Shown: one piece after another, positions 437 to 39,788 of the stretch
How positions within the stretch are numbered: position 1 is the stretch's first letter
How the letters are laid out: every line of letters starts with the position of its first letter
Virus record (IMG/VR): IMGVR_UViG_3300045988_002471
Location: 1-41,003 of that record
Direction: 5' to 3' (one strand)
Source: a virus
Lineage: Duplodnaviria; Heunggongvirae; Uroviricota; Caudoviricetes
DNA length: 41,003 nucleotides
The notes under the pieces: generated by a model
What the model saw: only the letters and a program-made list of their open reading frames with translations
Told to the model about the DNA's origin: nothing
Database searches by the model: none
Made by a program: the position numbers and the translations under genes

Positions 437-441
437 AGTGT

Positions 442-470
442 TGACACCCGAATAGTTAGCTATTATAGTT
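442..470 (+). promoter_or_regulatory. Sigma70-like promoter TTGACA-N17-TATAGT with embedded operator GAATAGTTAGCTATTA (451..466)
   Basis: -35 at 442..447, -10 at 465..470; near-identical to promoter/operator at 39210..39238. Confidence 0.6.
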
Positions 471-4063: not shown

Positions 4064-4355
4064 GGGGCGCATCCAGAAATACGCAAAAGAGCGATTCGAG
4101 GCCCTCGGTGGCCTCGTTCGAAAGCTGTCTTATGAGGGGCGCTCAGGCGCCCCCGACCTGCTGGTAATTCTTCCCGGCGGCATCGTCTGGTTCGTCGAGG
4201 TTAAGAAAGACGAAAACACGAAGCCAGACCCGCACCAGATACGTGAGCACGAGCGGATGCGTAAACGCGGTGCAAATGTTTTTGTAGTTGGTTCGCTCAA
4301 ACAGGTTGACGACCTAATAGCAAACTATTATAGTAGTCATACACCAACAATATAA
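4050..4355 (+). CDS. VRR-NUC domain nuclease (PD-(D/E)XK)
   Basis: 101 aa with GAPDLLVI...VWFVEVKK (D...E-V-K) core; RBS GAGGGG upstream. Confidence 0.7.
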   Translation: MSTPEGRIQKYAKERFEALGGLVRKLSYEGRSGAPDLLVILPGGIVWFVEVKKDENTKPDPHQIREHERMRKRGANVFVVGSLKQVDDLIANYYSSHTPTI

Positions 4356-4366
4356 GGAATTGAGAA

Positions 4367-4561
4367 ATGAAACACGAATACGACCGCAAACCAGCACGTG
4401 ACATCGTACCTGGCGACATGATTTTCAACGTTAAGACCCGTCGCCCTGTTGCCGTTGATACGGTGTTCGTCGAGTCGAACGGTAAACTGGTTATCGAAGA
4501 TGTAACGGGCAACGTTACCGCGTTCGGGCGTAAAGAGCTGGTACTCTACGTTAAGGATTGA
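4367..4561 (+). CDS. Hypothetical protein (64 aa)
   Basis: ORF with RBS AAGGA; between VRR-NUC and helicase. Confidence 0.45.
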   Translation: MKHEYDRKPARDIVPGDMIFNVKTRRPVAVDTVFVESNGKLVIEDVTGNVTAFGRKELVLYVKD

Positions 4562-4563
4562 GC

Positions 4564-5988
4564 ATGTCTAAATTTATCCGTCGAGAGTACCAGAAGCTCA
4601 TGACTTCGTTCATGTTGCAACACCCTCGCTGTAATATCTGGTGCGGCATGGGAGGGGGTAAAACCTCCTCTACTATGTGGGTGCTAAATCGACTGTTCCG
4701 TAATGGGCAACTTAATGACGACGACCGAGTGTTAATTCTGGCCCCTTTACGTGTTGCGTCCGGTACGTGGCCCGCAGAACAAGAGAAATGGAACTTCCCT
4801 TGTCTGCGTGTCGTCGATGCGACCGGTTCAGAGAAGCGCCGCATCGCGGCGCTGGAGTCAGATGCTAACGTGGTGTGCACAAACTACGAAGTTATCGAGT
4901 GGCTGATTGACTACTACGGCAAAGACGACTGGCCTTTTACGGTTATCGTTGCTGATGAGAGCACGAAGCTGAAATCTTTCCGTAGCCGTTCTGGAGGAAG
5001 CAAACGGGCTAAGGCGCTAAGCAAAGTGGCGTTCGGAAAGGTTAAGCGTTTCATTAACCTGACAGGCACACCGTCGCCGAACGGCCTCAAGGACTTGTGG
5101 GGGCAGAACTGGTTTATCGACGCTGGCGAGCGCCTTGGTTCTTCGTACACGGCATTCACCGACCGCTGGTTTAACTCAGTACAGAAAGGCAAGTCGGCGA
5201 TGGCGCGGGAGTACCACGCACGCCCGGGCGCGGATAATGAAATTCACCAGAAGATGAAAGACATAAGCCTCACTATTGACGCCGCTGAGTGGTTCGGGTG
5301 TGAAGCGCCGATTATTGTTCCGGTTGAAATCGACCTGCCGAAGAAAGCACGTCAGGCGTACATCGATATGGAGGAGAAGTTATTCGCGGAACTTGAGAGC
5401 GGGGAAGTGGAAGCTGCTAACGCTGCTGCGAAGACGTCGAAGTGCTTGCAAATTGCATCCGGTGCCGTATATGTATCGGGGCCAGACGGCGAAGCAACCA
5501 AAGAATGGGAGAAAGTGCACGACACGAAACTGGACGCGCTTGAGTCGATTGTGGAGGAGTTACAGGGTGCGCCGCTGCTTGTGGCCTATCAGTTCAAGCA
5601 CGAACTGGAGCGTATCCTTAAGCGATTCCCACAAGCACAGGCGTTTGCCAAAGGAGCGAAGGGTAATAAGCAGATGGAAGCGTGGAATCGTGGAGAAATC
5701 GAAATCTTATGCGTACATCCTGCGTCAGCGGGCCACGGCATATCGCTACAAGACGGCGGCCATCATATGGCGTTTTTCAGTCAGGGATGGAACCTCGAAC
5801 ACTATTTGCAGGTTATCGAGCGTATAGGTCCAACACGGCAAAAGCAATCTGGGTACAATCGCACCGTTTTTATCTACAAGATTATCGCTAAAGATACGTT
5901 GGATGAAGTAGTTGCGGCTCGTACCGACGAGAAAAAACAAGTACAAGACATACTACTAGAGTATATGAAGCGCAGAGGTAAAAAATGA
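4564..5988 (+). CDS. SNF2/DEAD-like superfamily 2 DNA helicase
   Basis: GMGGGKT Walker A-like, VIVADESTKLK DExx box, LTGTPSPN motif; start set to ATG 4564 after RBS AAGGA. Confidence 0.8.
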   Translation: MSKFIRREYQKLMTSFMLQHPRCNIWCGMGGGKTSSTMWVLNRLFRNGQLNDDDRVLILAPLRVASGTWPAEQEKWNFPCLRVVDATGSEKRRIAALESDANVVCTNYEVIEWLIDYYGKDDWPFTVIVADESTKLKSFRSRSGGSKRAKALSKVAFGKVKRFINLTGTPSPNGLKDLWGQNWFIDAGERLGSSYTAFTDRWFNSVQKGKSAMAREYHARPGADNEIHQKMKDISLTIDAAEWFGCEAPIIVPVEIDLPKKARQAYIDMEEKLFAELESGEVEAANAAAKTSKCLQIASGAVYVSGPDGEATKEWEKVHDTKLDALESIVEELQGAPLLVAYQFKHELERILKRFPQAQAFAKGAKGNKQMEAWNRGEIEILCVHPASAGHGISLQDGGHHMAFFSQGWNLEHYLQVIERIGPTRQKQSGYNRTVFIYKIIAKDTLDEVVAARTDEKKQVQDILLEYMKRRGKK

Positions 5989-6620: not shown

Positions 6621-6648
6621 AAGGCCCCGTTTGGGGCCTTAGTTTTAT
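6621..6648 (+). terminator. Rho-independent terminator (AAGGCCCC-gttt-GGGGCCTT + T-run) ending the plus-strand early operon; convergent with tailspike 3' end
   Basis: Perfect 8-bp GC stem then AGTTTTATTT. Confidence 0.7.
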
Positions 6649-9599
6649 TTATCTTCTAGTGCTGCCAGCCTCTTCTCGAACTCGCGCATCTTCTTACGCT
6701 GATAGGCAATCTCTATGAAGAACATCTGGTCCGCCCTAACCCCCCATCTGCCGCCGGGAGGGGATACTTGTACAGTCTGGCCCTCTTCATCAATATCATA
6801 CGCAGCTTCAATTGGGTCGTAGCACAAGAAAGCATATTTACAATCGGTAGAATCTTTCTCCATAAGCCCATGGTTGACCAAGATGTCTCGCACATCTTGG
6901 GCTATCACACCGAAGTGTATCCTTGCAGTGTCACCCTTGATTGCTAGGCTTTCAAGCCACTTAAAAGATATTACATGTATATCTTCCCATGCGGTAAGGA
7001 GTTGTCCCTCAATTTCCTCTTTATTCGTCTTAAGTGTACCATCAGACGTGTTTATCGTACCGGTGGTCGCGTACACCGTAGTCCACCTGTTACCTGCCGA
7101 ACCTAAAGGCACTTGCGAGTCTAAGTAAGGAAGGAAATTGTTGTATGAGTAGAAGCCTCCTGACGCATACATAATAGCCCTGTTAGGCGTTGCATGGTTT
7201 GCCCCGTACAGTTGCAGCAACGCACCATCGGAACTGGATGCGCCATCACCACCGCTAACTATCAGTCTTTGAACCGATGGGGTTTTAGTGGGGACTGTTT
7301 TTGAAATCAGCCCGTAATCACCATCAAACCGTGCGCGCACGGCAGACTGTTGTGTACCATCGTATTCCAGCCCCGTTACATGCAGGGAGTACACGCTTAC
7401 ATCATTGTCAAACGTTAAAGGTGCTTCTACATGGCGTACACCATCTACCCCCATGGCGACAGGTATTGTACGGTTAGGAGTTGCTCCGTATTTGAAATCA
7501 CGTGATACGTACGGGTGGTCTTCAATCTTTATCCGGTAGCTATATAAGTCAGCCGGATGCCCATCATGTTTGTACCATAACTTCGCACTGTTATCCCCTA
7601 TGCTCCAGGGAGAGAAGAAGTCTTCCCCACCAAAGATATAGTACAACCAGCCATCTTTAACACAGACCGAGCCGACGCCGACAGCAGAGTTAACGATATG
7701 ACCCTGGTATATTTGGTCGGTAATATTAAACCACTGAACATCATCTAAAGATGAAGGCCAGGACGACACATTGACTTTGCACATAAAGGTCCGTGGATAC
7801 GAACCTTCATAGCGGCTGTCCGGCTCGCCTCCTTCCCACTCGCCAAAGGCACGCTCTGTACCAAAGATGTAGAGATAGTCACCTACTTTAGCGAACGGAA
7901 GATTGGAGTGATGTACATTGTTCGGAAATCGCAAGTAGCTCCAGTTTTGCCCAGAATCGGTGCTCATCGCCAGTGTAGAGCCAGGGGAAGTAGGTAATGT
8001 GCCGCGTGTGGTAAGGTAGAGCACCCCACCATAACTTTTCACGCACGGCTCAGAAGCGTTATCAGCGTATGCCTGAGCGACAGTGCGACGAACGAATACG
8101 CCTGGATTGTCATACACGTTACTAAAATACAAGACGCCAAGACGACGAGGGGACACATCGCCGTTGTGGTAGCCGACAGCGATAGTGTAGTTAACATCAT
8201 CTATAACCGCAAAACTATGTGTCTCCGTGACACACAAATCAGCGTTAGTGGAGTATGCTACCCCAGGCAATTCGGTAATTTCCCACGGGCTGTCCCAGAA
8301 TCGCGTTGCGAAGTTCCAGGTAACACCCGCATTGTTTATGGTGGAACTCGCCGGGGTTGAGAGCGTAACAGTGAACGTATTTCGGTTAATTATAGACGAA
8401 ACCGTCATATTACCCGATACGCCAGTTGCCGATGTATTAGAGAAGTTAACCGCATCTCCTGCTTTTAGACCATGATTTTCTATAACAATGGTAGCAGTAG
8501 TGGAGCCAGAACTAATAGTTATTCCGCCGGTTGGGTGTCTAAAATACGGCATTGGGCGTGACCAAAGTTCTGCCTTCTTCATCCGCATATTAGATAAGTA
8601 GCGGGTTTCTATAACTGCATATAATCGGTTGCCGCACGTACCCATGCTCATGCAGTGGTAGTTAACTCTGTCCGAGGAAACACTAGCATTATAGTCAGCA
8701 TGGATCGGGGTCAACCACTCAGGCATTGACCAAGTCTGCCCGTCGTCACCAGAGCGAACCCAAGCTACATGTAAGTTTTGAACGCCATGTCGTTCGCCTG
8801 CCATAAACGGAGCGTAAATAACATTGTCGTAGACGAAAGTTTTATCCTGCGTCCATGCGTTGTAGAACGGGGTATCCGTCACCTTAGTTAGTGAGCCGTT
8901 AAAGAAGCCATCAGCTACATAAGTAAGCGGTTGCCCAGCTACGCGCTCGTAAACGAATGCAGCATTCTTAAATTTACTAATGTCAGGTAATTGGGAAACT
9001 TTATAAGTCAAACCCCTGCCGTCTATAATCCAATTGTTGGGGGAAGCTGCTAATACATTAAAAATAGATTGAGTATCATCAGTTACGCCGTCGCCCACGG
9101 CGCCCCATGCGCGCAGGTCGTATTCGTCCTTCCATCGCGCCACATGTAAATCTGGGTACAGAATTGCACCGTTTACATCAGATATTTGATGCCGCAGTAT
9201 GACCGACCCGACGGGCTGCCATGCCCCATCTGCCACGCCACCGGTGGACTGCGGAGAGGATGACGCTGGGATAATTTTTGGCAGAGCACCCAACCAATAG
9301 TACCAGTCCCCGTCACCGCCAGAGGACGACGGCCACAAAACTGCGGTGTTTCGGTCGTTAGCGGATAGTGTACCGCCTGACGTGAAATCAAAATCTGCCA
9401 GTTTAAAACCTGCGTCACGCAACACAGCCGGCAGTGTCTTCTGTGTCTGCCCTGTAACTGCGTTGGTCGCGTAATCGATATCAGAGCCACCAGCAACGCC
9501 GCCGGATTTACCAGTGATAACCTCGGCTTCGAAAATCTGGTGTTTCGTGGCGGTCTGTAAATCCGCCAGGCTTAAAACGTCACCGCATCCGCTTGACAT
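6645..9599 (-). CDS. Tailspike, sialidase-like (Asp-box/BNR) with C-terminal intramolecular chaperone (peptidase S74-like) domain; possible endosialidase
   Basis: 984 aa; Asp-boxes SGDDGQTW and STDSGQNW; GAVGDGVTDDT motif; C-terminal ...HFGVIAQDVRDIL...AALEDK autoproteolytic chaperone signature. Confidence 0.8.
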   Translation of the reverse strand: MSSGCGDVLSLADLQTATKHQIFEAEVITGKSGGVAGGSDIDYATNAVTGQTQKTLPAVLRDAGFKLADFDFTSGGTLSANDRNTAVLWPSSSGGDGDWYYWLGALPKIIPASSSPQSTGGVADGAWQPVGSVILRHQISDVNGAILYPDLHVARWKDEYDLRAWGAVGDGVTDDTQSIFNVLAASPNNWIIDGRGLTYKVSQLPDISKFKNAAFVYERVAGQPLTYVADGFFNGSLTKVTDTPFYNAWTQDKTFVYDNVIYAPFMAGERHGVQNLHVAWVRSGDDGQTWSMPEWLTPIHADYNASVSSDRVNYHCMSMGTCGNRLYAVIETRYLSNMRMKKAELWSRPMPYFRHPTGGITISSGSTTATIVIENHGLKAGDAVNFSNTSATGVSGNMTVSSIINRNTFTVTLSTPASSTINNAGVTWNFATRFWDSPWEITELPGVAYSTNADLCVTETHSFAVIDDVNYTIAVGYHNGDVSPRRLGVLYFSNVYDNPGVFVRRTVAQAYADNASEPCVKSYGGVLYLTTRGTLPTSPGSTLAMSTDSGQNWSYLRFPNNVHHSNLPFAKVGDYLYIFGTERAFGEWEGGEPDSRYEGSYPRTFMCKVNVSSWPSSLDDVQWFNITDQIYQGHIVNSAVGVGSVCVKDGWLYYIFGGEDFFSPWSIGDNSAKLWYKHDGHPADLYSYRIKIEDHPYVSRDFKYGATPNRTIPVAMGVDGVRHVEAPLTFDNDVSVYSLHVTGLEYDGTQQSAVRARFDGDYGLISKTVPTKTPSVQRLIVSGGDGASSSDGALLQLYGANHATPNRAIMYASGGFYSYNNFLPYLDSQVPLGSAGNRWTTVYATTGTINTSDGTLKTNKEEIEGQLLTAWEDIHVISFKWLESLAIKGDTARIHFGVIAQDVRDILVNHGLMEKDSTDCKYAFLCYDPIEAAYDIDEEGQTVQVSPPGGRWGVRADQMFFIEIAYQRKKMREFEKRLAALEDK

Positions 9600-9611: not shown

Positions 9612-12167
9612 TTAATTAAAACCATCGCTGAATCCGTCGGAGAAACCGCTGCCGTATGGCGCGACGCCGTCGTATTTATAGAAACCTTCATCATAGTTGT
9701 AGCCAGTAATCTTGACCGTGCGGTCGTCGCCCGGGTCGATTGAAGAAACAACTATCTTCTGTGCATTATGCCTTGCTTCGTTGCCGAATGAAAACTCAGT
9801 TTTTAGTGCGCTATTCCCTGTGTAGATTGCTTCCTCCGGCGCCGATAGCATAATCACCTCGCGGTCGTGGCTTCCTTGAATAACGGAGATACTCTGCACT
9901 GAGCCGTCGCGCTTCTTAAGAATGATGGAGTGGTCATCGCCCGCGGTAAACGTAACAGGCTGCGACAGCGTCAGCGTAAGCCCATTAACGGCAACAACAT
10001 AGCCGTCTTGTGGCGCAATACGCGAGCCTTTAACCACGCTGATTACGCCGCCGGGAGTAGCGAGCGCACCTTCTTCAGTAGCTTCGAACTCTACGACAAC
10101 TTTACTTAACGCATTGCGCTGATATCGACGCCACGCAAGCCAGTACGCCTGCTGGTAGTTGCGCACGCCCTTCGATTCGTATTCCTCAGTGTTTGCGCCG
10201 AGTTCTTCCGGGATATAAATAGTTTCCCGTACGTTAGTATCTGGGTCGATGTACGAGAACGAAAGGCTATCGTAGGTAGTCGAATCGTTGAACGTGCGGG
10301 TCCATTTCTCTGTACCGGTAGTTTTGCTGCGGTGGGTGAACACCATTTCAGGCCCCGCAACCGGACGGTCGAATCGCAACATAATATCCGCACCTTTACG
10401 GTACGCAGTACAGAAAACGGCTTCCGCTATGGTCTGAACAATGTCCTGCATCGTGGTGTCGTAGTCGTCGAACGTGTAGCAGAATTGTCCGGCTAATTCG
10501 CTGCCAAAATAGGACTCAATTTCTTCCTGCACAGCGAGTAACTTATCCATATTTGCCGTTGTCAGTTCCAGATTACCCACCGCCGGGTCTCGAGCCAGTC
10601 TGATTAGAGATTGCACGGCCTGAGTATTTGGGGTCATTACAGTATCGAACGTCCCATTGCCGAGGTATTTGTAGCACATCTCGGTCGCAATCATGCGCAG
10701 TTCCGGGTTGTCTATACTCGCCGCCCGCGGGGTCTGTTTACGGGCGCAATGTACGGTAGTTCGGTTGCCGTAGTGCGGTGTGGGGTCCAGAGACTGACCG
10801 TACAGGTTGATGAAGGTTATCTCGTCACTTACCGTGCCGTTGTAGTCTTTATCGAAATTCGTTATACGGCGCATGCGGGCGCGGAAACGCGATGCGGTTG
10901 GCAACTGCCCATAAATGGACGTGCCGACGTAATCCGTGCTATTACCAGTAATCGTAGCCTGTACCGTGTAAATATCGCTCAACGGGTTGCGTTGAGAATC
11001 AATCATCTGGTACTGGAGTTCTACGGTTACGCTGGTGCGGTTATAGCCGCCGTCGTATTTGTAGAGGCCGTTCTGCCCGGCAACGTTAGCAAGTACCCGG
11101 TCAACCTCTCCGCGCACCATGTAATACCAGTCCGTAAGAGATACGTCATAGGTGTTGCTTGGGCCTATAAACGTATCCGAACGCTCTGTAAGTGCGTAAG
11201 TCTCCCCGTTATTAAGGTTACCCCAGTTACCTATATCCCCGACGTACAACCGAACCTCAAAGTCGTCGACGTATAAAACTTCAAACGAGCCGTTTAGGTT
11301 AGTGACGTCCTTAACGTCGAAATTGCTCAACACTGCGACATCACCAACACTAAGAAACTCAGAAAAAGCAGAGTCACCCGACGGGTCATATAGGTAGCCG
11401 GTGGTCGAAATACGTTTGGCGGTTCCACCGGAGCTTGGGTTAGCTCCAATGTCGTTTGGCGCTTTCAGTACAATACCGTCAACGTCGTCGTTAGAGTACG
11501 TCACATAGAGTTTCTGGTCGATGACGTCGCCGATTTGTAGTTGCGGCGATGTGGTGTTGTTCGGTGACGTATACGGCGCGTATACGGCAACAGAGGAACC
11601 TGTGATGTCGCTTATCAGGGTGTCACCTTCCGTGACGCCATCCGCCTCAATATGCAGATGTCCGCGCCCGGCGTCGTAGTACGAATACTCCAGCAAAGCA
11701 CCAGTGGAGTTGAACGCCTTATACGTCTGCATCATGTCGTTAGGGATTGTCTGCACAGTCCCGCAGATGTCATAAGAGCGCTCGTAAGGGCGCGGCTTGT
11801 TTGAGCGGTCGGTAAGGCTGTTATTTGGCGATGTTGTCTGGTTATTAGTCGCCGTGTAGTTGGCGTTTGCAGACATGTTCAGGCCGAGCAACTTAGCGAT
11901 TGGCTTAAGGATAAAACCAAACACCTTACTAACGGCACCAAGCGCCCCGCTACCAGCGCCCTCAATAATGTGGTATACCGCGTCTTCATCTTTAAGCGCG
12001 TCGAAGTCGTCGGTGACATCAGTATCGTCACCAATCTCACCGAGGTAGACGCGCACCGGCACACCGTCCGGGATACGGTTAACGACAAACTCCATCGGCA
12101 TCCCGACGTGTTTTGTACGGTCGAAAGCGCCATCAGCGTTTCGCGTGTAGTGCAGGATTATCGCCAA
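9612..12167 (-). CDS. Large distal tail protein (tail tip / host-specificity J-like)
   Basis: 851 aa, between minor tail genes and tailspike. Confidence 0.5.
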   Translation of the reverse strand: MAIILHYTRNADGAFDRTKHVGMPMEFVVNRIPDGVPVRVYLGEIGDDTDVTDDFDALKDEDAVYHIIEGAGSGALGAVSKVFGFILKPIAKLLGLNMSANANYTATNNQTTSPNNSLTDRSNKPRPYERSYDICGTVQTIPNDMMQTYKAFNSTGALLEYSYYDAGRGHLHIEADGVTEGDTLISDITGSSVAVYAPYTSPNNTTSPQLQIGDVIDQKLYVTYSNDDVDGIVLKAPNDIGANPSSGGTAKRISTTGYLYDPSGDSAFSEFLSVGDVAVLSNFDVKDVTNLNGSFEVLYVDDFEVRLYVGDIGNWGNLNNGETYALTERSDTFIGPSNTYDVSLTDWYYMVRGEVDRVLANVAGQNGLYKYDGGYNRTSVTVELQYQMIDSQRNPLSDIYTVQATITGNSTDYVGTSIYGQLPTASRFRARMRRITNFDKDYNGTVSDEITFINLYGQSLDPTPHYGNRTTVHCARKQTPRAASIDNPELRMIATEMCYKYLGNGTFDTVMTPNTQAVQSLIRLARDPAVGNLELTTANMDKLLAVQEEIESYFGSELAGQFCYTFDDYDTTMQDIVQTIAEAVFCTAYRKGADIMLRFDRPVAGPEMVFTHRSKTTGTEKWTRTFNDSTTYDSLSFSYIDPDTNVRETIYIPEELGANTEEYESKGVRNYQQAYWLAWRRYQRNALSKVVVEFEATEEGALATPGGVISVVKGSRIAPQDGYVVAVNGLTLTLSQPVTFTAGDDHSIILKKRDGSVQSISVIQGSHDREVIMLSAPEEAIYTGNSALKTEFSFGNEARHNAQKIVVSSIDPGDDRTVKITGYNYDEGFYKYDGVAPYGSGFSDGFSDGFN

Positions 12168-16579: not shown

Positions 16580-16687
16580 TCTTTAATCCTTTGGTTAAGA
16601 GGTTACAGGTTAACGATAAATGCGCCAGACGGGAACCACCCGCTTTTCGTGTGCGACACTAGGCGCAAACTTATTCTATCACATTAC

Positions 16688-16716
16688 TTGCACACCCCAA
16701 TATAATAGGGTACTAT
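16688..16716 (+). promoter_or_regulatory. Promoter TTGCAC-N17-TACTAT with operator-like palindrome (16703..16720) driving the plus-strand island
   Basis: -35 at 16688..16693, -10 at 16711..16716; the ~38-bp block recurs at 34662..34700 and 35663..35700. Confidence 0.55.
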
Positions 16717-16746
16717 TCACTTACACCAACAATGAAGGGGTTTAAA

Positions 16747-16938
16747 ATGTCCAGTTTACCAGTTTCCTTAATTCTGTTTGCACTGCTCGCTTATTTCGCG
16801 CCTTTCCTGGTTGCGTACTTCCGTAACCATAAAGCGAAGTTAGCGATATTCATGGCTAATCTGTTTCTTGGTTGGGTTCTGCTGCCGTGGGTATTTATTT
16901 TAATCTGGGCTTGCAACTCGAATGTCAAAGAGAAGTGA
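16747..16938 (+). CDS. Small two-TM membrane protein, superinfection-immunity (Imm)-like
   Basis: MSSLPVSLILFALLAYFAPFLVAYF...NLFLGWVLLPWVFILIWACN; start at ATG 16747 after RBS AAGGGG; Imm assignment is from memory of the family motif. Confidence 0.45.
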   Translation: MSSLPVSLILFALLAYFAPFLVAYFRNHKAKLAIFMANLFLGWVLLPWVFILIWACNSNVKEK

Positions 16939-16976
16939 GCTAGTATAGGACAAATCCTAAACACGAGGAAATAGGC

Positions 16977-18107
16977 ATGGCCCAGAAGAAAATAACCGAC
17001 GAACAGTTACAGGAAGAATTGAACGCTGGGATGAAGAATATCGACATTGCTCGTAAATACGGCATCTCAGACCGCGTAATTCGTATCCGTAAAGCGAAGC
17101 TGGCTAAGAAAGGCGTAGGTCACGGGCGCGACGTTAGTCACCTTGTGCCGGACGGCTACAAGATTAAAGGAACGTCGTCACTGGTGGACGAGTTCGGCAA
17201 CACTAAGTTGCAATGGGTTAAAACCGACACTGACGCCGAACGTCAGGTTGAGTTGATGAAGGCCGTAATCGAGGGCATGAAGTCGGAGATTACCCCCGTT
17301 GCTCCTGTTAAAGCCGTTCGCGCCAAACGAGACGACAAGCTACTCAACCTTTACACTGTGTCTGATTTCCATCTCGGTATGCTGGCCTGGGCTGACGAGA
17401 GCGGCGACGACTGGGACATGAAGATTGCGGAAGACCTGTTCTCCCGCTGGTTCGACGCAGCGTTCCAGAAAGCACCGGATGCAGGAACAGGAGTTATTAA
17501 TCTGCTGGGCGACCTTGCGCATTTTGATAGTCTGGACGCCGTTACACCTGCCAGTGGTCATGTTCTTGACGCTGACACCCGCTATCAGAAACTTGTACGC
17601 TACATGATTCGTATGGTCCGCCGTGTCATTGATATGGCTCTCGTTAAACATAAAAATGTTCGCTTGCTTATCGTGCAAGGTAACCACGACGAAAGCGGAA
17701 TGATTTGGTTGGCTGAGATGTTCAGTACGCTATACGACAACGAGCCGCGTGTGTTCGTCGATACGTCGCCGGATGTTTACAAGATGGTGCAACACGGCAA
17801 AACTACGCTGTTCTTTCACCACGGCCATAAAGCACGATTCGATGCTATCGAACCAGTTATGATCGCCAAGTTCCGCAAAGCGTTCGGCGAGAGTGTTTAC
17901 AGCTACGCCCATATAGGACACCTGCACCATCAGAAGATTGTAGAAAGCCGTAACATGATTGTTGAACAACACCGCACCCTGGCGGCTAAAGACGCCTACG
18001 CCTCGCGCGGCGGATGGATGTCGGGCCGCAGTGCAAACGTAATTACTTATAGTGCCGAATATGGCGAGGTCGCACGTTTAACTATTTCACCGGAGATGCT
18101 TGGATGA
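16977..18107 (+). CDS. Calcineurin-like metallophosphoesterase with N-terminal HTH-like domain
   Basis: Phosphoesterase motifs DFHLG, GDLAHFD, GNHDE, HHGH, GHLHH; N-terminal about 60 aa resemble a small HTH. Confidence 0.7.
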   Translation: MAQKKITDEQLQEELNAGMKNIDIARKYGISDRVIRIRKAKLAKKGVGHGRDVSHLVPDGYKIKGTSSLVDEFGNTKLQWVKTDTDAERQVELMKAVIEGMKSEITPVAPVKAVRAKRDDKLLNLYTVSDFHLGMLAWADESGDDWDMKIAEDLFSRWFDAAFQKAPDAGTGVINLLGDLAHFDSLDAVTPASGHVLDADTRYQKLVRYMIRMVRRVIDMALVKHKNVRLLIVQGNHDESGMIWLAEMFSTLYDNEPRVFVDTSPDVYKMVQHGKTTLFFHHGHKARFDAIEPVMIAKFRKAFGESVYSYAHIGHLHHQKIVESRNMIVEQHRTLAAKDAYASRGGWMSGRSANVITYSAEYGEVARLTISPEMLG

Positions 18108-18589
18108 AAGATATTGTGATTTTCGATTTAGACGGGACATTGGCAGATGGTACTCATCGTTTACACCTGCTGCCGAAAGATAACTACGGCGAAACCTGGG
18201 CGTGGAAACCATTTAACATGGCGTGCAAAGACGATGCACCCATTAAAGATAACATCGAACTGTGTAACGCCATTAATCGTCGCTATGCCGTTATTATCTT
18301 AACAGGCCGTAGTGATGACGCGGAAAAAGAAACCAGAATGTGGTTGCAGCGCCACCGCGTCGAATTTTATCAGTTAATCATGCGCAGCAAACACGACAAC
18401 AGAAAAGACATCGTAATTAAAGAAGAGGTGTTGCGTGCTATTGGGCCGGAGAGAATCTTGTGTGCATTCGACGACTCTCCAGCGGTAATAAAGCATTTCC
18501 GCGAACTCGGCATAACCACTCACGCAGTTACTGAATACGACTGTAACGGGAACTCTACACACTTAAAACCACATGGGAGTGATAAATAA
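18104..18589 (+). CDS. HAD-family phosphatase, T4 polynucleotide kinase 3'-phosphatase-domain-like
   Basis: VIFDLDGTLA (DxDGT), IILTGRS, K, AFDDSP motifs; resemblance to T4 Pnk phosphatase domain recalled from memory. Confidence 0.65.
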   Translation: MKDIVIFDLDGTLADGTHRLHLLPKDNYGETWAWKPFNMACKDDAPIKDNIELCNAINRRYAVIILTGRSDDAEKETRMWLQRHRVEFYQLIMRSKHDNRKDIVIKEEVLRAIGPERILCAFDDSPAVIKHFRELGITTHAVTEYDCNGNSTHLKPHGSDK

Positions 18590-19143
18590 TGGCTAAGGTA
18601 ATTATTCTTAATGGTCCTGCGGGCTGCGGGAAAGACACACTTGCTAGGGCGCTGGTAGAAATGGGCTTTGCGAAGGGTGTCGCCAGTTTCAAGAATCCGA
18701 TGTTCAATATTGCTATGGCTGCGTTAGGCCAGGATGCTTACCGCGAGTTTCTCGACGGCTACGACGACCGGGCGCGGAAAGAAAAGCCAGAGGGTTTCCT
18801 TAACGGGTTGTCTCGGCGTCAGTTCATGATTGCCATTTCCGAGCAATTCATTAAACCGGTATTCGGTGATGATTATTTCGGCAAGTATCTTGCCGGAAAC
18901 TTGCCCGACGGCAACGAAGTTTTTGTAGTGTCCGACGGTGGATTCGCCAGCGAAGTAGCCCCTATCGTTGCCGCGGGGCATGATGTGAGAATCGTCCGCT
19001 TGCACAGAGACGGCCATACGTTTGAAGGGGACAGCCGCGGTTACCTGTACGATATTGATGGTGTAAAAGATTACGACACCTACATCATACCGGGTGACGT
19101 TAAATCGAACGTTATAGACATTGCTTTAAAATTAGGTTTGTAA
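18589..19143 (+). CDS. P-loop kinase (dNMP-kinase-like or polynucleotide-kinase-like)
   Basis: Walker A GPAGCGKDT; about 184 aa; start overlaps upstream stop. Confidence 0.6.
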   Translation: MAKVIILNGPAGCGKDTLARALVEMGFAKGVASFKNPMFNIAMAALGQDAYREFLDGYDDRARKEKPEGFLNGLSRRQFMIAISEQFIKPVFGDDYFGKYLAGNLPDGNEVFVVSDGGFASEVAPIVAAGHDVRIVRLHRDGHTFEGDSRGYLYDIDGVKDYDTYIIPGDVKSNVIDIALKLGL

Positions 19144-19180
19144 GAAAAAAAAAAAGGCCCCGAAAGGGGCCTTAGTTTTA
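19144..19180. terminator. Bidirectional rho-independent terminator (A-run, AAGGCCCC-gaaa-GGGGCCTT, T-run)
   Basis: Perfect stem flanked by A12 and T-run between convergent genes. Confidence 0.75.
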
Positions 19181-22828: not shown

Positions 22829-22858
22829 AAAAGGGGCCGTAGCCCCTTTGTTTTTACC
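22829..22858 (-). terminator. Terminator-like hairpin after the capsid gene (AGGGGC-tacg-GCCCCT + T-run on minus strand)
   Basis: GC stem plus TTTTTAC just 3' of the capsid stop. Confidence 0.5.
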
Positions 22859-25045: not shown

Positions 25046-25071
25046 GTTTCCCCTTTCTCGATAAGTAAAGC

Positions 25072-25096
25072 CCCGCCTTAAAGCGGGGCGCTAGTC
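25072..25096 (-). terminator. Terminator-like hairpin (GCCCCGC-N6-GCGGGGC + U-rich tail) in the leader just upstream of the spanin RBS
   Basis: 7-bp GC stem then TTTACTTAT on the minus strand. Confidence 0.45.
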
Positions 25097-25168
25097 CTTA
25101 TCATTTAAACATAGAAACGGCGTAATCTCAGTAAACCAGTTACTTTTTACACAAGCAATAGAGTATGG

Positions 25169-25263
25169 CCCTTCCGAACGCGTCAGCGTAACTACACTCA
25201 GGACTTACGTCCCGCTCCGTTACCTGCCCGCGCCGCGGTCGCTTGTTCATACTTCACAAGCTC
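25169..25263 (-). ncRNA. Candidate structured leader RNA / cis-regulatory element, copy A
   Basis: Conserved blocks shared with 35876..35971; two hairpins at matching positions with different sequences; dedicated upstream promoter. Confidence 0.4.
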
Positions 25264-25269
25264 AGGTGG

Positions 25270-25298
25270 AGCTTAGCACATTTTCAGTGAAAAGTCAA
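25270..25298 (-). promoter_or_regulatory. Promoter TTGACT-N14-TGc-TAAGCT (extended -10) for element copy A
   Basis: -35 at 25298..25293, -10 at 25275..25270; same promoter at 35978..36006. Confidence 0.45.
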
Positions 25299-25361
25299 CT
25301 ATTCGAATAGTTTATTCCAACATTTACAATTATGTGGAATAACTGGAATAATCACAGGCGC

Positions 25362-25385
25362 TAAAAAGCCCCTTTCGGGGCTTAA
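25362..25385 (-). terminator. Rho-independent terminator after the Ig-like gene
   Basis: AAGCCCC-tttc-GGGGCTT with T-run on the minus strand. Confidence 0.6.
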
Positions 25386-25387
25386 GT

Positions 25388-27692: not shown

Positions 27693-27720
27693 AAGGCCCC
27701 TAGCGGGGCCTTTCTATTTA
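27693..27720 (+). terminator. Rho-independent terminator (AAGGCCCC-tagc-GGGGCCTT + T-rich) between KilA-N gene and portal 3' end
   Basis: Perfect 8-bp stem then TCTATTTA. Confidence 0.6.
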
Positions 27721-32752: not shown

Positions 32753-32781
32753 AATATAATAGGGTCGATGGTAATAGTCAA
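32753..32781 (-). promoter_or_regulatory. Sigma70-like promoter TTGACT-N17-TATATT for the small-ORF operon
   Basis: -35 at 32781..32776, -10 at 32758..32753 on the minus strand. Confidence 0.55.
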
Positions 32782-32802
32782 CTAGTCATTACAGAAAATA
32801 GA

Positions 32803-34014: not shown

Positions 34015-34308
34015 TTATTTATGTCTCCAGATGTATTGGCGTCTCTGCGGTTTCGTCGGAATATCATCGTATCCCAACGATTTCCAGTAATTAAATAGCC
34101 GATTAGCGATTGCTGCGCGTTCCTGTGTTTTAAACTCACCGAGATTCACAGCCTTCCCGTTCTGGAATCCACAGGCGCGTACCGCTTTGCGTCTGGCCTG
34201 AATCTCGGGGTACAGTGCATTACGGCGGCGCTTGTGTATACGCGTATTCGCTCTCGGCGACAGCGGCGCAAGGCCGCTTCGTTTCAGGATGTCAGTTGCT
34301 AACGACAT
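34015..34308 (-). CDS. Hypothetical basic protein (97 aa)
   Basis: Track ORF coupled to upstream gene. Confidence 0.4.
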   Translation of the reverse strand: MSLATDILKRSGLAPLSPRANTRIHKRRRNALYPEIQARRKAVRACGFQNGKAVNLGEFKTQERAAIANRLFNYWKSLGYDDIPTKPQRRQYIWRHK

Positions 34309-34637
34309 TATTTCTCCTGTTTACCAAGTCGCTTAGGTGAGCAGATAGCGCGTACCTCCGAACCGTACGCACCTTTGCGGATAAGTTTGTATGCCTCCAC
34401 GTCACCAGTAGCCTCGGCCAATGCCAGATGCAACTCCTTAACTTGCCCTGTCAGGTGCGATATGTGCTCAGATTTCTTAATGTTGTCTTCCCGCAACTCC
34501 TTAATCTGCGCCGACGCATCACGTAACTGATTCTTAAGTGACTGCACCTCATGCGCCAGGTCTTCGCTCCGGCTGTTATTTACCTGCTGCCGTAGCTGGT
34601 CGATCAGGTACTCGAATATTTCGTTTTTGTTACTCAT
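34308..34637 (-). CDS. Hypothetical coiled-coil protein (about 109 aa)
   Basis: Start set to MSNKNEIF after RBS GAGGGGA. Confidence 0.4.
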   Translation of the reverse strand: MSNKNEIFEYLIDQLRQQVNNSRSEDLAHEVQSLKNQLRDASAQIKELREDNIKKSEHISHLTGQVKELHLALAEATGDVEAYKLIRKGAYGSEVRAICSPKRLGKQEK

Positions 34638-34661
34638 CTCTGTCTCCCCTCTCATTTGTGT

Positions 34662-34700
34662 AAATGAATAGTAGCCTATTCTATCTTAGTGTGCAAGTAA
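34662..34700 (-). promoter_or_regulatory. Promoter TTGCAC-N17-TACTAT with palindromic operator GAATAGTAGCCTATTC (34666..34681)
   Basis: Perfect 6-bp half-site inverted repeat overlapping the -10. Confidence 0.55.
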
Positions 34701-34703
34701 ATT

Positions 34704-34877
34704 TTATTGGTGTGTTATAGAGTCGATGAACGCCAGTAACTCCCTTTCCGCTTCTGCTTCTCTTTCTTCAAGCGACCAGGTAGCGGATTCCTCTGTTGCC
34801 GTTGCTAAATCGGTTTTTACGTCAATCATCGTGTCGATTAACGTGATTAGTCGTTCAGCCTGTTCTTTAGTAATCAT
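34704..34877 (-). CDS. Small acidic ORF (57 aa)
   Basis: Own translation MITKEQAERLITLIDTMIDVKTDLATATEESATWSLEEREAEAERELLAFIDSITHQ. Confidence 0.3.
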   Translation of the reverse strand: MITKEQAERLITLIDTMIDVKTDLATATEESATWSLEEREAEAERELLAFIDSITHQ

Positions 34878-35001
34878 TGTTGCATCTCCTGCAATAGTCG
34901 CTTCGATTGTTGCGTTTGATGAAAGTGTCGCCTTTTGACGACACTAAGTTAAAGTTGTACGCTGCTGTGTAGCAGCGTAAGTCATTAAGCCAAATAGTAA
35001 G

Positions 35002-35163
35002 CTATTGACCTGTTACACCACCTGTTACACCGGCACGATATTGCACACCAGCTTTCCACGCCCGCCACGCAAGACGCGTCTTAACGTTCAGGTACTCTTT
35101 CTTCGAACCCTTGTTAACTGGCAGACCCTCGACGACGGCCCACCGCTCAAATGCTTCTCTCAT
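35002..35163 (-). CDS. Small ORF (53 aa)
   Basis: Own translation MREAFERWAVVEGLPVNKGSKKEYLNVKTRLAWRAWKAGVQYRAGVTGGVTGQ; RBS GGAGGA. Confidence 0.3.
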   Translation of the reverse strand: MREAFERWAVVEGLPVNKGSKKEYLNVKTRLAWRAWKAGVQYRAGVTGGVTGQ

Positions 35164-35415: not shown

Positions 35416-35634
35416 TTATTTAAAGTAGATAGCGAATTTCTTGTAACCCGCGGGCTCATTACGAAGCCCCTTACCGATAGCGAAACGTTGTACGTTGTTA
35501 AAATCGTTTCCATCCATACCGTCGGTGCCGAACGTAAAGAAGTTGCGTTTGTTCCCGATAATTACGCGCTCTGAAATATCGATGCCGTAAACTTGTTTGA
35601 TTGCGGAAACTACGCTTGCGGTCGCTTTGTTCAT
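35416..35634 (-). CDS. Hypothetical protein (72 aa)
   Basis: Track ORF just downstream of promoter 35663..35700. Confidence 0.45.
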   Translation of the reverse strand: MNKATASVVSAIKQVYGIDISERVIIGNKRNFFTFGTDGMDGNDFNNVQRFAIGKGLRNEPAGYKKFAIYFK

Positions 35635-35662: not shown

Positions 35663-35700
35663 AAGTGAATAGTAACCTATTATGTTGGGGTGTGCAAGAT
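35663..35700 (-). promoter_or_regulatory. Promoter TTGCAC-N18-TACTAT with operator GAATAGTAACCTATTA (35667..35682)
   Basis: About 38-bp block nearly identical to the reverse complement of 16688..16725. Confidence 0.55.
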
Positions 35701-35875
35701 AATAGTTACGTTGCCGTTGTGATTCTTTCGTTTCTTAAAAGAGTACGCAACGCAGTGGGTGGGCGTTAGCCCACCCCAGCGGAGTGAAGTACTCTCTACC
35801 TTGCTCACGGCAACTATAGAAACTTTTAATTATCAGTGACTTGGATATTTAGGCGGGATTAACAATAGACTTTGA

Positions 35876-35971
35876 CCCTTCCGAAAGCGTCAGCGGAACT
35901 ACACTCAAGTGCCTAATGGCACGCGTTGCGTTCCCTGCCGCTCCGCGGTCGCTTGCGATATCTCACAAGCT
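35876..35971 (-). ncRNA. Candidate structured leader RNA / cis-regulatory element, copy B
   Basis: Shares conserved blocks with 25169..25263; hairpin GTGCC-atta-GGCAC at 35909..35922 replaces GGAC-ttac-GTCC of copy A. Confidence 0.4.
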
Positions 35972-35977
35972 CAGTGA

Positions 35978-36006
35978 AGCTTAGCATATTTTCAAGTAAA
36001 AGTCAA
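35978..36006 (-). promoter_or_regulatory. Promoter TTGACT-N14-TGc-TAAGCT for element copy B
   Basis: -35 at 36006..36001, -10 at 35983..35978; conserved with copy A. Confidence 0.45.
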
Positions 36007-36053
36007 TACCAGTAGCATCTTTTGTATTTTAGTAACTTTGCGTGGTGTTTTGG

Positions 36054-36082
36054 TTGCTTTTACAAAGTTACCGCCTTATACT
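36054..36082 (+). promoter_or_regulatory. Sigma70-like promoter TTGCTT-N17-TATACT for the plus-strand early operon
   Basis: Motifs about 30 nt upstream of the AlpA-like gene RBS. Confidence 0.45.
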
Positions 36083-36111
36083 TCGATACATATTACACAG
36101 GAGAGCGCGAG

Positions 36112-36282
36112 ATGACTATCAATGAAGTTGCAGAATTAATCGGCGTCACCCGCCAGACGATCAATAACTGGATTAAGAGTGGAAAGTTTCCTGATTGCAG
36201 CGTTAAAGTAATGGGGCGCCGTTTACCAGGAACATTTGACCGTAATAAAGTTGAAGCGTGGATTAAGGAGAACGTGAAATGA
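36112..36282 (+). CDS. AlpA-family HTH DNA-binding protein (Xis/AlpA-like)
   Basis: MTINEVAELIGVTRQTINNWIKSGKFPD...; start set to ATG 36112 after RBS CAGGAGAG. Confidence 0.6.
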   Translation: MTINEVAELIGVTRQTINNWIKSGKFPDCSVKVMGRRLPGTFDRNKVEAWIKENVK

Positions 36283-38920: not shown

Positions 38921-38940
38921 AAAGGGGCATTAAGCCCCTT
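38921..38940 (-). terminator. Terminator-like hairpin (GGGGC-attaa-GCCCC) with T-rich tail on the minus strand, overlapping the repressor stop
   Basis: Short GC stem followed by TTTCTTTTTAC on the minus strand. Confidence 0.4.
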
Positions 38941-39145
38941 CACCGAACGCCAGCCACTTGGCGTCTACTTGTAGCACTTCCGCCAGCTTGAACAGCGTCG
39001 CCGGCCGGACGTCCTGAGTTACCCCGAGCGCAAGCTGGTTAATCGCGCCCTGGGAAACGCCAGCCAGGACCGCCAGACGGCGCTGGGAGATGCCGAGTTC
39101 TTTACGGCGTTGTTCTACGCGGATACCTAGTTCAGATGGTTGCAT
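38930..39145 (-). CDS. XRE-family HTH transcriptional regulator (Cro/CI-like)
   Basis: LGISQRRLAVLAGVSQGAINQLALG helix-turn-helix; 71 aa; divergent from operator-bearing promoter. Confidence 0.8.
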   Translation of the reverse strand: MQPSELGIRVEQRRKELGISQRRLAVLAGVSQGAINQLALGVTQDVRPATLFKLAEVLQVDAKWLAFGEGA

Positions 39146-39172: not shown

Positions 39173-39190
39173 GTGAATAGTACCATATTA
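39173..39190. promoter_or_regulatory. Operator-like site GTGAATAGTACCATATTA upstream of the repressor gene
   Basis: GAATAG half-site shared with five other sites. Confidence 0.45.
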
Positions 39191-39209: not shown

Positions 39210-39238
39210 TTGACACGTGAATAGTTCGCTATTATAGT
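39210..39238 (+). promoter_or_regulatory. Promoter TTGACA-N17-TATAGT with embedded operator GAATAGTTCGCTATTA (39219..39234)
   Basis: Consensus -35 and near-consensus -10; operator occupies the spacer. Confidence 0.65.
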
Positions 39239-39269: not shown

Positions 39270-39788
39270 ATGTTAGAACAATTCTTAAAATTACTGGAAC
39301 GTTTCGTAGTTGCACATGAACTGATTGCTGCGAACAGTGCACGCCGTACTGAACTGCCGAAGGCTATCACGGCGCCATATGGTAAAGACGTCGACAGTGG
39401 TGTAGCAGAAACTGCAACAATCACGCCTACTGTTGTGAAAGAAGAAACAAAAGAAATCCCGGTTGAAGGTGAAGACGTAGTTGACACCAAACCGGCGGAG
39501 GAAGAGAAGCCAAAACGCAAGCCGCGTAAAGCTAAAGTAGAGGAACCTGCGCCAGAACCGGAAGAAGATAAAGAAGAAGTCGATTACCAGTCTCTTCGTG
39601 ACCAGATTCAGGCTATCGACGATGCAATTAACGAAGGTCCTAGCGATGCCGCTTGCGATGATTCTGATGAACTGCTGGAAGAGTTCACGGGTAAGAAAAT
39701 GAAGATTGCTGCGATTAAAGACGAAGACCTGGCTGAGTATCTGGAGCGCCTGACGGCAATCAAGAACAAGTATTTCGAAGAAGAATAA
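39270..39788 (+). CDS. Highly acidic protein (172 aa), first gene of the operator-controlled plus operon
   Basis: Roughly 50 Asp/Glu versus about 25 Lys/Arg by eye; low-complexity Glu/Pro/Lys-rich centre. Confidence 0.5.
   Translation: MLEQFLKLLERFVVAHELIAANSARRTELPKAITAPYGKDVDSGVAETATITPTVVKEETKEIPVEGEDVVDTKPAEEEKPKRKPRKAKVEEPAPEPEEDKEEVDYQSLRDQIQAIDDAINEGPSDAACDDSDELLEEFTGKKMKIAAIKDEDLAEYLERLTAIKNKYFEEE

Follow-up and report, generated by a model that had tools for sequence, protein, structure and literature searches.

The window, by which we mean the whole 41,003-nt stretch of DNA analyzed here, was placed by megablast in Kagunavirus (Guernseyvirinae) as a K1G-like lytic coliphage, with ~95% identity to phiEc4, K1G, K1ind, and fTaEco01 in the matched segments. 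Its open reading frames (ORFs) of at least 700 aa encode a DNA polymerase, an endosialidase tailspike, a tail protein, a tape measure protein, and a helicase-primase; none of these ORFs contains an RNA polymerase domain, and the annotations of five relatives (K1G, SE2, RP180, SP-031, and St162) list no gene for such an enzyme. Because the 984-aa tail protein is an endosialidase, we consider the phage to be a K1-capsule-specific lytic siphophage. No gene for cI, an S24 peptidase, or an integrase was found in the window or in annotated relatives, and an Rfam scan of the entire window returned no known RNA family.

A four-gene module interrupts the tail gene block in reverse orientation (Table 1). 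Its gene content is different in SE2 and reduced to one small gene in Cornellviruses, with the position of its promoter retained. Borders between oppositely oriented gene blocks are marked by a bidirectional terminator hairpin, AAGGCCCC-N4-GGGGCCTT, which occurs in three copies (6621-6640, 19154-19173, and 27693-27712, with a related hairpin at 22830-22849) and whose stems are the next most enriched dyads genome-wide after the palindrome described below. Between the head-decoration and spanin genes, ~340 nt (25046-25387) have no ORF of at least 40 aa on the coding strand; this gap holds a promoter (class III, defined below) and two terminator-like hairpins (25070-25089 and 25366-25383), has no Rfam match, and has an equivalent in K1G (4319-4663). 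A second gap, of ~400 nt (35700-36110), extends from the cassette that we call copy C to a gene for an HTH_17 protein and contains a GC-rich hairpin at ~35757-35783 (GGGTGGGC...GCCCACCC). A search of this second gap for a promoter that could drive the HTH_17/helicase-primase operon rightward gave no sigma-70 match that we find convincing.

The feature at the center of this analysis is a short promoter cassette. The pattern TTGCACACNNNNANANAATAGGNTACTATTCA (32 nt, 25 specified bases) matches the window exactly three times, at 16688-16719 (+), 34665-34696 (-), and 35666-35697 (-), and has no match in 100 dinucleotide-preserving shuffles of the window (0 expected). The initial annotation had reported a unit of ~38 bp in three copies, which these matches bear out, and had placed it at coordinates that are 1 to 4 nt off the strings it quoted (e.g., the third copy, GTGAATAG, starts at 35665, not 35663). 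When the copies are lined up in the direction of the promoters, their similarity spans ~38 nt, beginning with the C in front of TTGCAC and reaching ~8 nt past TACTAT; the similarity ends abruptly at these edges, and the flanks of the three are unrelated. Copies A and C differ at 2/32 positions, a divergence similar to that between the same two copies in K1G, which gives little reason to invoke concerted evolution between copies, and copy B deviates chiefly at spacer positions 9-12.

All three copies read TTGCAC-N17-TACTAT, so that the spacer, previously given as 17 or 18 nt, is 17 nt throughout and never 18. This spacing falls within the 16 to 18 nt expected of sigma-70 promoters, and the -10 has the expected A at its second and T at its sixth position. 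Co-oriented start codons lie 25 to 45 nt downstream of the -10, behind GA-rich Shine-Dalgarno sequences, and a 14-bp palindrome, AATAG-N4-CTATT, is superimposed on the -10 in such a way that the -10 box makes up its right half. The ideal spacing, the start codons, and the palindrome over the -10 support the earlier description of the unit as a promoter-operator cassette; that it heads three operons was too loose a statement, as copy B lies inside the leftward gene string headed by copy C. The hexamers match the sigma-70 consensus at 3/6 and 4/6 positions (7/12 in all, at the ideal spacing of 17 nt), and copy A contains a perfect TATAAT (16701-16706), 7 nt upstream of TACTAT; our choice of the -10 in these promoters is tentative for these two reasons. 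A promoter scan pairs this TATAAT with ATCACA at 16678, and the matching hexamers are CATAAT in copy C and TAGAAT in copy B. It is a possibility that cassettes A and C are bidirectional, via TATTAT on the opposite strand. Some leader sequences are also shared between promoters: an 11-mer, ACACCAACAAT, is common to the leaders of copy A (16723-16733) and of the promoter at 4306 (4343-4353), and AAACGAGA is common to those of copy C and the promoter at 39210.

Table 1. Positions, strands, and makeup of the cassettes, dyad sites, and genes discussed in the text
Feature	Position	Strand	Description
Promoter, class II	441..469	+	TTGACA-N17-TATAGT (11/12 to consensus); dyad AATAGTTAGCTATT at 451-464 in spacer; upstream of DUF2815 and DNA polymerase genes
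Promoter, class II	4306..4334	+	TTGACG-N17-TATAGT; dyad AATAGCAAACTATT at 4316-4329 in spacer; upstream of 64-aa ORF and SNF2-type helicase
Tailspike endosialidase gene	6645-9599	-	Complete: End_N_terminal, beta-propeller, beta-barrel, tail-spike, and S74 chaperone domains
Promoter, class I, copy A	16687..16724	+	-35 TTGCAC 16688-16693; -10 TACTAT 16711-16716; dyad AATAGGGTACTATT at 16704-16717; heads the four-gene module
Four-gene module, copy A driven	16747-19143	+	Superinfection-immunity protein (imm), metallophosphoesterase, PNK-type phosphatase, P-loop ATPase
Promoter, class III	25270..25303	-	TTGACT-N17-TAAGCT; -35 25298..25293; -10 25275..25270; -35 embedded in one-mismatch dyad AATAGTTGACTTTT at 25290-25303; upstream of spanin and head genes; evidence includes HP1 of fBC-Eco01
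Promoter, class III	32753..32786	-	TTGACT-N17-TATATT (32781..32753); -35 embedded in one-mismatch dyad ACTAGTTGACTATT at 32773-32786; downstream of endolysin gene, upstream of small genes and terminase
Promoter, class I, copy B	34662..34697	-	-35 34696..34691; -10 34673..34668; dyad at 34667-34680; within leftward early gene string, upstream of 115-aa ORF 34655..34308
Exact dyad	34993..35006	-	AATAGCTTACTATT; contains TACTAT; between ORFs 35163..35002 and 34877..34704; conserved in RP180
Promoter, class I, copy C	35663..35698	-	-35 35697..35692; -10 35674..35669; dyad at 35668-35681; heads leftward early gene string, first ORF 35634..35416
HTH_17 protein gene (56 aa)	36112..36282	+	Excisionase/MerR-like; rival candidate binder; about 400 bp from cassette C
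HTH_3 protein gene (71 aa)	38930..39145	-	Proposed repressor; closest solved relative is phage 434 Cro
Dyad O1	39176..39189	-	AATATGGTACTATT, one mismatch; overlaps presumed -10 TACTAT (39182..39177) of cro-like gene
Promoter, class II	39210..39238	+	TTGACA-N17-TATAGT; dyad O2 AATAGTTCGCTATT at 39220-39233 in spacer; divergent from cro-like gene; heads rightward operon starting at 39270

The palindrome is not confined to the three cassettes. In an exhaustive count of every palindrome with 5-bp arms and gaps of 0 to 10 nt, AATAG-N4-CTATT is the top-ranked dyad of the window (7 exact copies versus 0.03 expected, p about 1e-15). It heads the ranking in K1G (6 copies) and RP180 (8 copies) as well, and in the Jerseyvirus SE2 its enrichment is significant; the other top-ranked dyads are GC-rich terminator stems. 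Allowing one mismatch adds 3 sites in promoter regions, for a total of 10. A further one-mismatch dyad, at 10508, lies inside a tail-protein gene and was taken as chance. Eight of the 10 sites fall entirely within the noncoding part of the window, which amounts to ~9% by a crude ORF model; one overlaps the end of an ORF by 2 bases, and another is found within the final 40 nt of an ORF.

Relative to the promoter hexamers, the dyad takes three registers. It lies over the -10 in class I (about -19 to -6), in the spacer of the near-consensus promoters of class II (about -25 to -12), where its orientation relative to the hexamers is opposite to that in class I, and over the -35 in class III, where its center and one arm form the -35. 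The exact dyad at 34993 to 35006 has no recognizable -35; adjoining it, at the 3' end of ORF 35163..35002, a 12-mer (ACCTGTTACACC) is perfectly duplicated in tandem (35008-35031), an arrangement also present in RP180 that could be another protein-binding site. The occurrence of one dyad in three registers and both orientations would be expected of an independent binding site rather than of a part of the recognition sequence of the polymerase.

The selective constraint on class I points in the same direction. We collected 39 unique promoters from 36 Kagunavirus sequences, picked only by TTGCAC-N17-TACTAT, so that the invariance of the hexamers holds by construction of the set. Within this set, the bases of AATAG (spacer positions 17-21) are conserved in 38 to 39 of the 39 promoters, and TCA behind the -10 and an A 7 nt downstream of it show likewise little or no change, whereas positions 9-12, 14, and 16 and the dyad center (22-23) vary freely. 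In the Jerseyvirus counterpart, the -35 drifts to TTGACG or TTGTGT, like a normal -35. It might be argued that the copies are merely related sigma-70 promoters, with the extra shared bases reflecting promoter quality or ancestry and no repressor involved, given that both dyad arms resemble -10 hexamers (TATAAT-AG and TACTAT-T) and that the copies could be paralogues. We consider this unlikely, as the same palindrome occupies different registers and orientations with respect to the -35 and -10, its arms are invariant next to variable spacer bases, the similarity of the flanks stops abruptly at the cassette edges, and both half-sites have changed symmetrically at orthologous Cornellvirus promoters, which are used by the same host polymerase (see below).

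Among the small proteins encoded in the window, the best candidate for a ligand is one of 71 aa with a Pfam HTH_3 domain (E 1e-12). Its top PDB sequence match (phmmer) is the Cro protein of phage 434 (E 5e-7 over residues 6-68; profile E 1e-21), and its single-sequence AlphaFold model (five helices, pLDDT 84) has 2cro as the top Foldseek match (TM 0.72 to 0.78). The 434 Cro protein, also of 71 aa, binds as a dimer to 14-bp operators (ACAA-N6-TTGT), the outer bases of which are contacted and conserved and the center of which is variable. Two of the dyads, O1 and O2, lie 44 bp apart within the 124-bp divergent region between 39145 and 39270, O1 over the presumed -10 of the promoter of the cro-like gene, where its mismatch creates a TGn extended -10, and O2 in the spacer of the divergent rightward class II promoter. 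Because the cro-like gene is situated between two operators, it would regulate itself. We also compared the 140 nt upstream of this gene among loci chosen by protein, not by DNA (34 unique Kagunavirus sequences). The arms of O2 never change in these 34 control regions and three of its four central bases do; O1 is invariant except for two single-base variants. The initial annotation had left room for a likeness limited to generic promoter hexamers; with the AATAG arms and TCA conserved and the O2 arms fixed in loci selected by protein, the shared sequence goes beyond this.

If the 71-aa protein is the ligand, then the dyad should vary with it among relatives. We repeated the dyad count on each of 80 loci retrieved through their similarity to the protein. 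In most lambdoid loci whose Cro is of the 434 type, the two highest-ranking dyads include the known 434 operator, TACAA-N6-TTGTA, which sits at -62 and -35 of cro, and we conclude from its return beside 434-type cro genes that the count recovers a real operator. In 35/35 Kagunavirus loci AATAG-N4-CTATT is the top AT-rich dyad, and in 11/11 Jerseyvirus loci (counting L167) it is among the two top AT-rich dyads; it is absent from the count for L135, which has a non-Jersey Cro (51% identity). The Cornellviruses SP-031 and St162, whose Cro proteins are 39 to 42% identical, have no AATAG-N4-CTATT. They carry instead TATTA-N6-TAATA, at 9 and 8 sites with at most one mismatch (1.0 expected; maximum of 5 in 200 shuffles), including promoters orthologous to the class II promoter at 441, the class III site at 32773, and copy A. 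In its 16-mer form the dyad goes from TAATAGnnnnCTATTA to TATTAGnnnnnTAATA in Cornellvirus, a symmetric change of both half-sites, and since the host polymerase is the same in all clades compared, the change tracks a phage factor.

In a further clade (L137), AATAC-N4-GTATT is found in two promoters. Operator and Cro appear to covary across a few independent clades, with AATAG in Kagunavirus and Jerseyvirus, TATTA..TAATA in Cornellvirus, AATAC in L137, and ACAA in the 434 type; because the phages compared are related, part of the invariance is shared ancestry. The recognition helices of the Kagunavirus and Jerseyvirus Cro proteins differ at 4/7 positions (SQGAINQ versus SQSLITH), yet the core dyad is the same, which weakens the case for Cro as its binder. 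Other dyads are enriched in other Cro clades (TAAGA-N4-TCTTA, several sites of which look intragenic, TAATA-N8-TATTA, and TTACC-N7-GGTAA). The last of these, which is unrelated to AATAG-N4-CTATT, is present in 4 to 5 copies per locus in several of the lambdoid prophage loci L148-L152.

A second regulator has to be considered. The dyad could be an operator that is bound not by the Cro-like protein but by the 56-aa HTH_17 (excisionase/Cox/MerR-like) protein, the gene for which lies about 400 bp from cassette C. Homologues of this protein were detected only in Kagunavirus and Jerseyvirus, exactly the two genera with AATAG-N4-CTATT, so that co-occurrence alone cannot separate the two candidates; the HTH region of the Jerseyvirus allele is almost the same as that of some Kagunavirus alleles, and the HTH_17 protein of the Jerseyvirus SGP-C has been speculated to be cI-like (PMC8790156). 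Nevertheless, we judge this assignment to be quite improbable. Cornellviruses and other clades without a detectable HTH_17 protein still carry 14- to 16-bp dyads in orthologous promoters, no dyad lies beside the HTH_17 gene whereas two flank cro, and the recognition region of HTH_17 takes several forms in Kagunavirus (VTRQTINNW, VTRRTLNNW, and VSPMTLNRW) while the dyad stays constant. It also counts against this protein that HTH_17/excisionase-type proteins, where characterized, usually bind direct repeats, not 14-bp dyads.

We consider it probable, reading binding from sequence and predicted structure, that the three repeats are host sigma-70 promoters with an embedded operator for the 434-Cro-like protein of the phage. 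The model that we infer, in its start sites and binding as in the sign and timing of regulation, is as follows. Each copy would serve as a promoter for the host sigma-70 RNA polymerase, with TTGCAC as the -35, the 17-nt spacer, and TACTAT as the -10, and the invariant A that follows the -10 by 7 nt would probably be the transcription start. The built-in 14-bp operator would be one of about ten, all in promoter regions, and its binder most likely a dimer of the 71-aa protein. Rising levels of the protein would occlude RNA polymerase, which would be blocked from each of the three registers, and expression would fall for the early genes read leftward from copies C and B, for the imm/exonuclease/PNK module behind copy A, for the replication operons, and for the cro-like gene itself. 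The class III dyads, with their promoters embedded in the late gene string, are not explained by an early shut-off alone. Our literature search on the Guernseyvirinae found no transcription-start, transcriptome, or binding data.

The cassettes also coincide with junctions of a mosaic. Compared with phiEc4, the homology of the window breaks 13 nt upstream of cassette B and inside the leader of cassette C, and the genes just downstream of both cassettes have been replaced. The 97 distinct class I sites that we compared fall into 12 clusters by upstream sequence and 32 by downstream sequence, recombined in many combinations. From these breakpoints, a role of the cassettes in recombination is suggested. 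One could go further and regard the 38-bp cassette as primarily a homology patch for the shuffling of early-gene modules between phages, with regulation being secondary, and the T4-type PeSL cassettes provide a precedent (PMC2839356). We give little credence to this stronger form, because 38 bp is short for homologous exchange, because fixed arms and hexamers among otherwise free bases are what protein binding, not recombination, predicts, and because junctions at promoters are expected anyway, intergenic breakpoints being those that survive selection.

K1G and RP180 carry all ten dyad sites at orthologous positions, and SE2 carries most of them, and therefore the cassettes are ancestral in the subfamily rather than marks of recent insertion. 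This bears on the earlier suggestion of a modular, co-regulated acquisition. Co-regulation is plausible, though of a larger set than the three copies, since the same palindrome occurs at 10 promoter-region sites. Acquisition finds no support, as orthologues of all three copies exist in both K1G and RP180 and one of copy A, at the least, exists in SE2. The modular aspect, with cassettes at module boundaries, agrees with the breaks in phiEc4 homology at cassette edges and the 12 versus 32 contexts, but not in the sense of recent insertion of the cassettes, which are ancestral.

It is possible, although we offer this only as a tentative extension of the Cro-operator model, that transcription in this lytic subfamily is mostly run by one orphan Cro, without a cI, acting on ~10 operators placed in the -35, spacer, or -10, and that the 38-bp units double as portable junctions that prewire swapped-in early genes. 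If this is true, homologous genomes that enter the cell could likewise be repressed by the orphan Cro, a possible explanation for the carrier-state immunity that has been reported in SGP-C.

The repeat itself is already known. Seven sites in fBC-Eco01 (PP1-PP7) are labeled "Phage RNAP promoter" in PHIRE output, with the consensus tgAATAGTa-ccTATTat-T (PMC9825357, Suppl. Table S2), seven PHIRE "conserved promoter sequences," including TAATAGGGTACTATTCATTA, are given for VB_EcoS-Golestan (PMC7203180), and the PHIRE motif TAATAGTACCCTATTATGTT is given for the Jerseyvirus SGP-C (PMC8790156). These 20-mers are the same element as the dyad studied here. The three papers list promoters only and mention neither the palindrome, the sigma-70 hexamers, and the registers nor a link to Cro (PMC9825357, PMC7203180, PMC8790156); within the literature searched, the operator reading is new, and the mechanism that it invokes is a textbook one. 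The fBC-Eco01 annotation, by which a phage-encoded RNA polymerase would use these 20-mers as its promoters, has next to no likelihood, given that no such gene is present among window ORFs of at least 700 aa or annotated in the five relatives, that the palindromic motif is found in either orientation with respect to the genes that follow it, and that it is embedded between good sigma-70 hexamers. As the phage has no RNA polymerase gene, this annotation (PMC9825357) looks wrong, and we regard it as untenable. In SGP-C, two HTH proteins were speculated to form a Cro/cI pair (PMC8790156), and a temperate lifestyle inferred in part from the Cro-like "repressor" gene (PMC8790156) likewise looks wrong.

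Members of Kagunavirus and Jerseyvirus are widely put forward as therapeutic phages against K1 E. coli and Salmonella. The Cro-operator reading would give a testable regulatory map, consisting of ten sites and one small protein, and would offer a compact set of repressible promoters for the engineering of these phages. It would also mean that a "repressor" gene need not indicate a temperate phage, which is relevant to the assessment of safety in therapy.

Three known systems bear comparison with the arrangement in this phage. Like the PeSLs of T4-type phages (PMC2839356, PMC4122927), the cassettes are short repeated early-promoter units that flank variable small early genes at mosaic junctions, and as in those phages the repeated promoter lies where variable modules meet. 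A PeSL combines a promoter with a terminator stem-loop and has no repressor operator, whereas the unit here combines a promoter with a palindromic operator; no stem-loop lies within the 38 bp, the flanks of the copies are unrelated, and the composite structure of a PeSL is not present. The C proteins and C-boxes of restriction-modification systems likewise pair a small XRE-type HTH dimer with inverted repeats over its own promoter, and C.AhdI and C.BclI are among the fold and profile matches of the 71-aa protein, although these are weaker than the match to 434 Cro. Unlike C-boxes, which act at a single promoter as an activate-then-repress timing switch, nothing here indicates activation.

The third is phage 434 itself, from which the system differs in several respects. 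The phage studied here is lytic and lacks a cI partner, an integrase, and a lysogeny module; its operators number about ten, spread over the genome in three registers, rather than forming two tripartite clusters; the half-site is AATAG rather than ACAA; and two operators 44 bp apart, at which binding is predicted, flank cro in place of three adjacent ones. In other respects the two agree. The regulator is a small 71-aa five-helix HTH_3 protein with 434 Cro as its best match in both sequence and fold, the operator is a 14-bp dyad with conserved outer bases and a variable center, the operators overlap core promoter elements as at 434 OR and OL, and some of them lie in a divergent control region beside cro, which implies autoregulation. 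Given the lack of cI, an S24 peptidase, and an integrase, we conclude that the arrangement resembles repression through Cro operators but is not a lambdoid immunity region.
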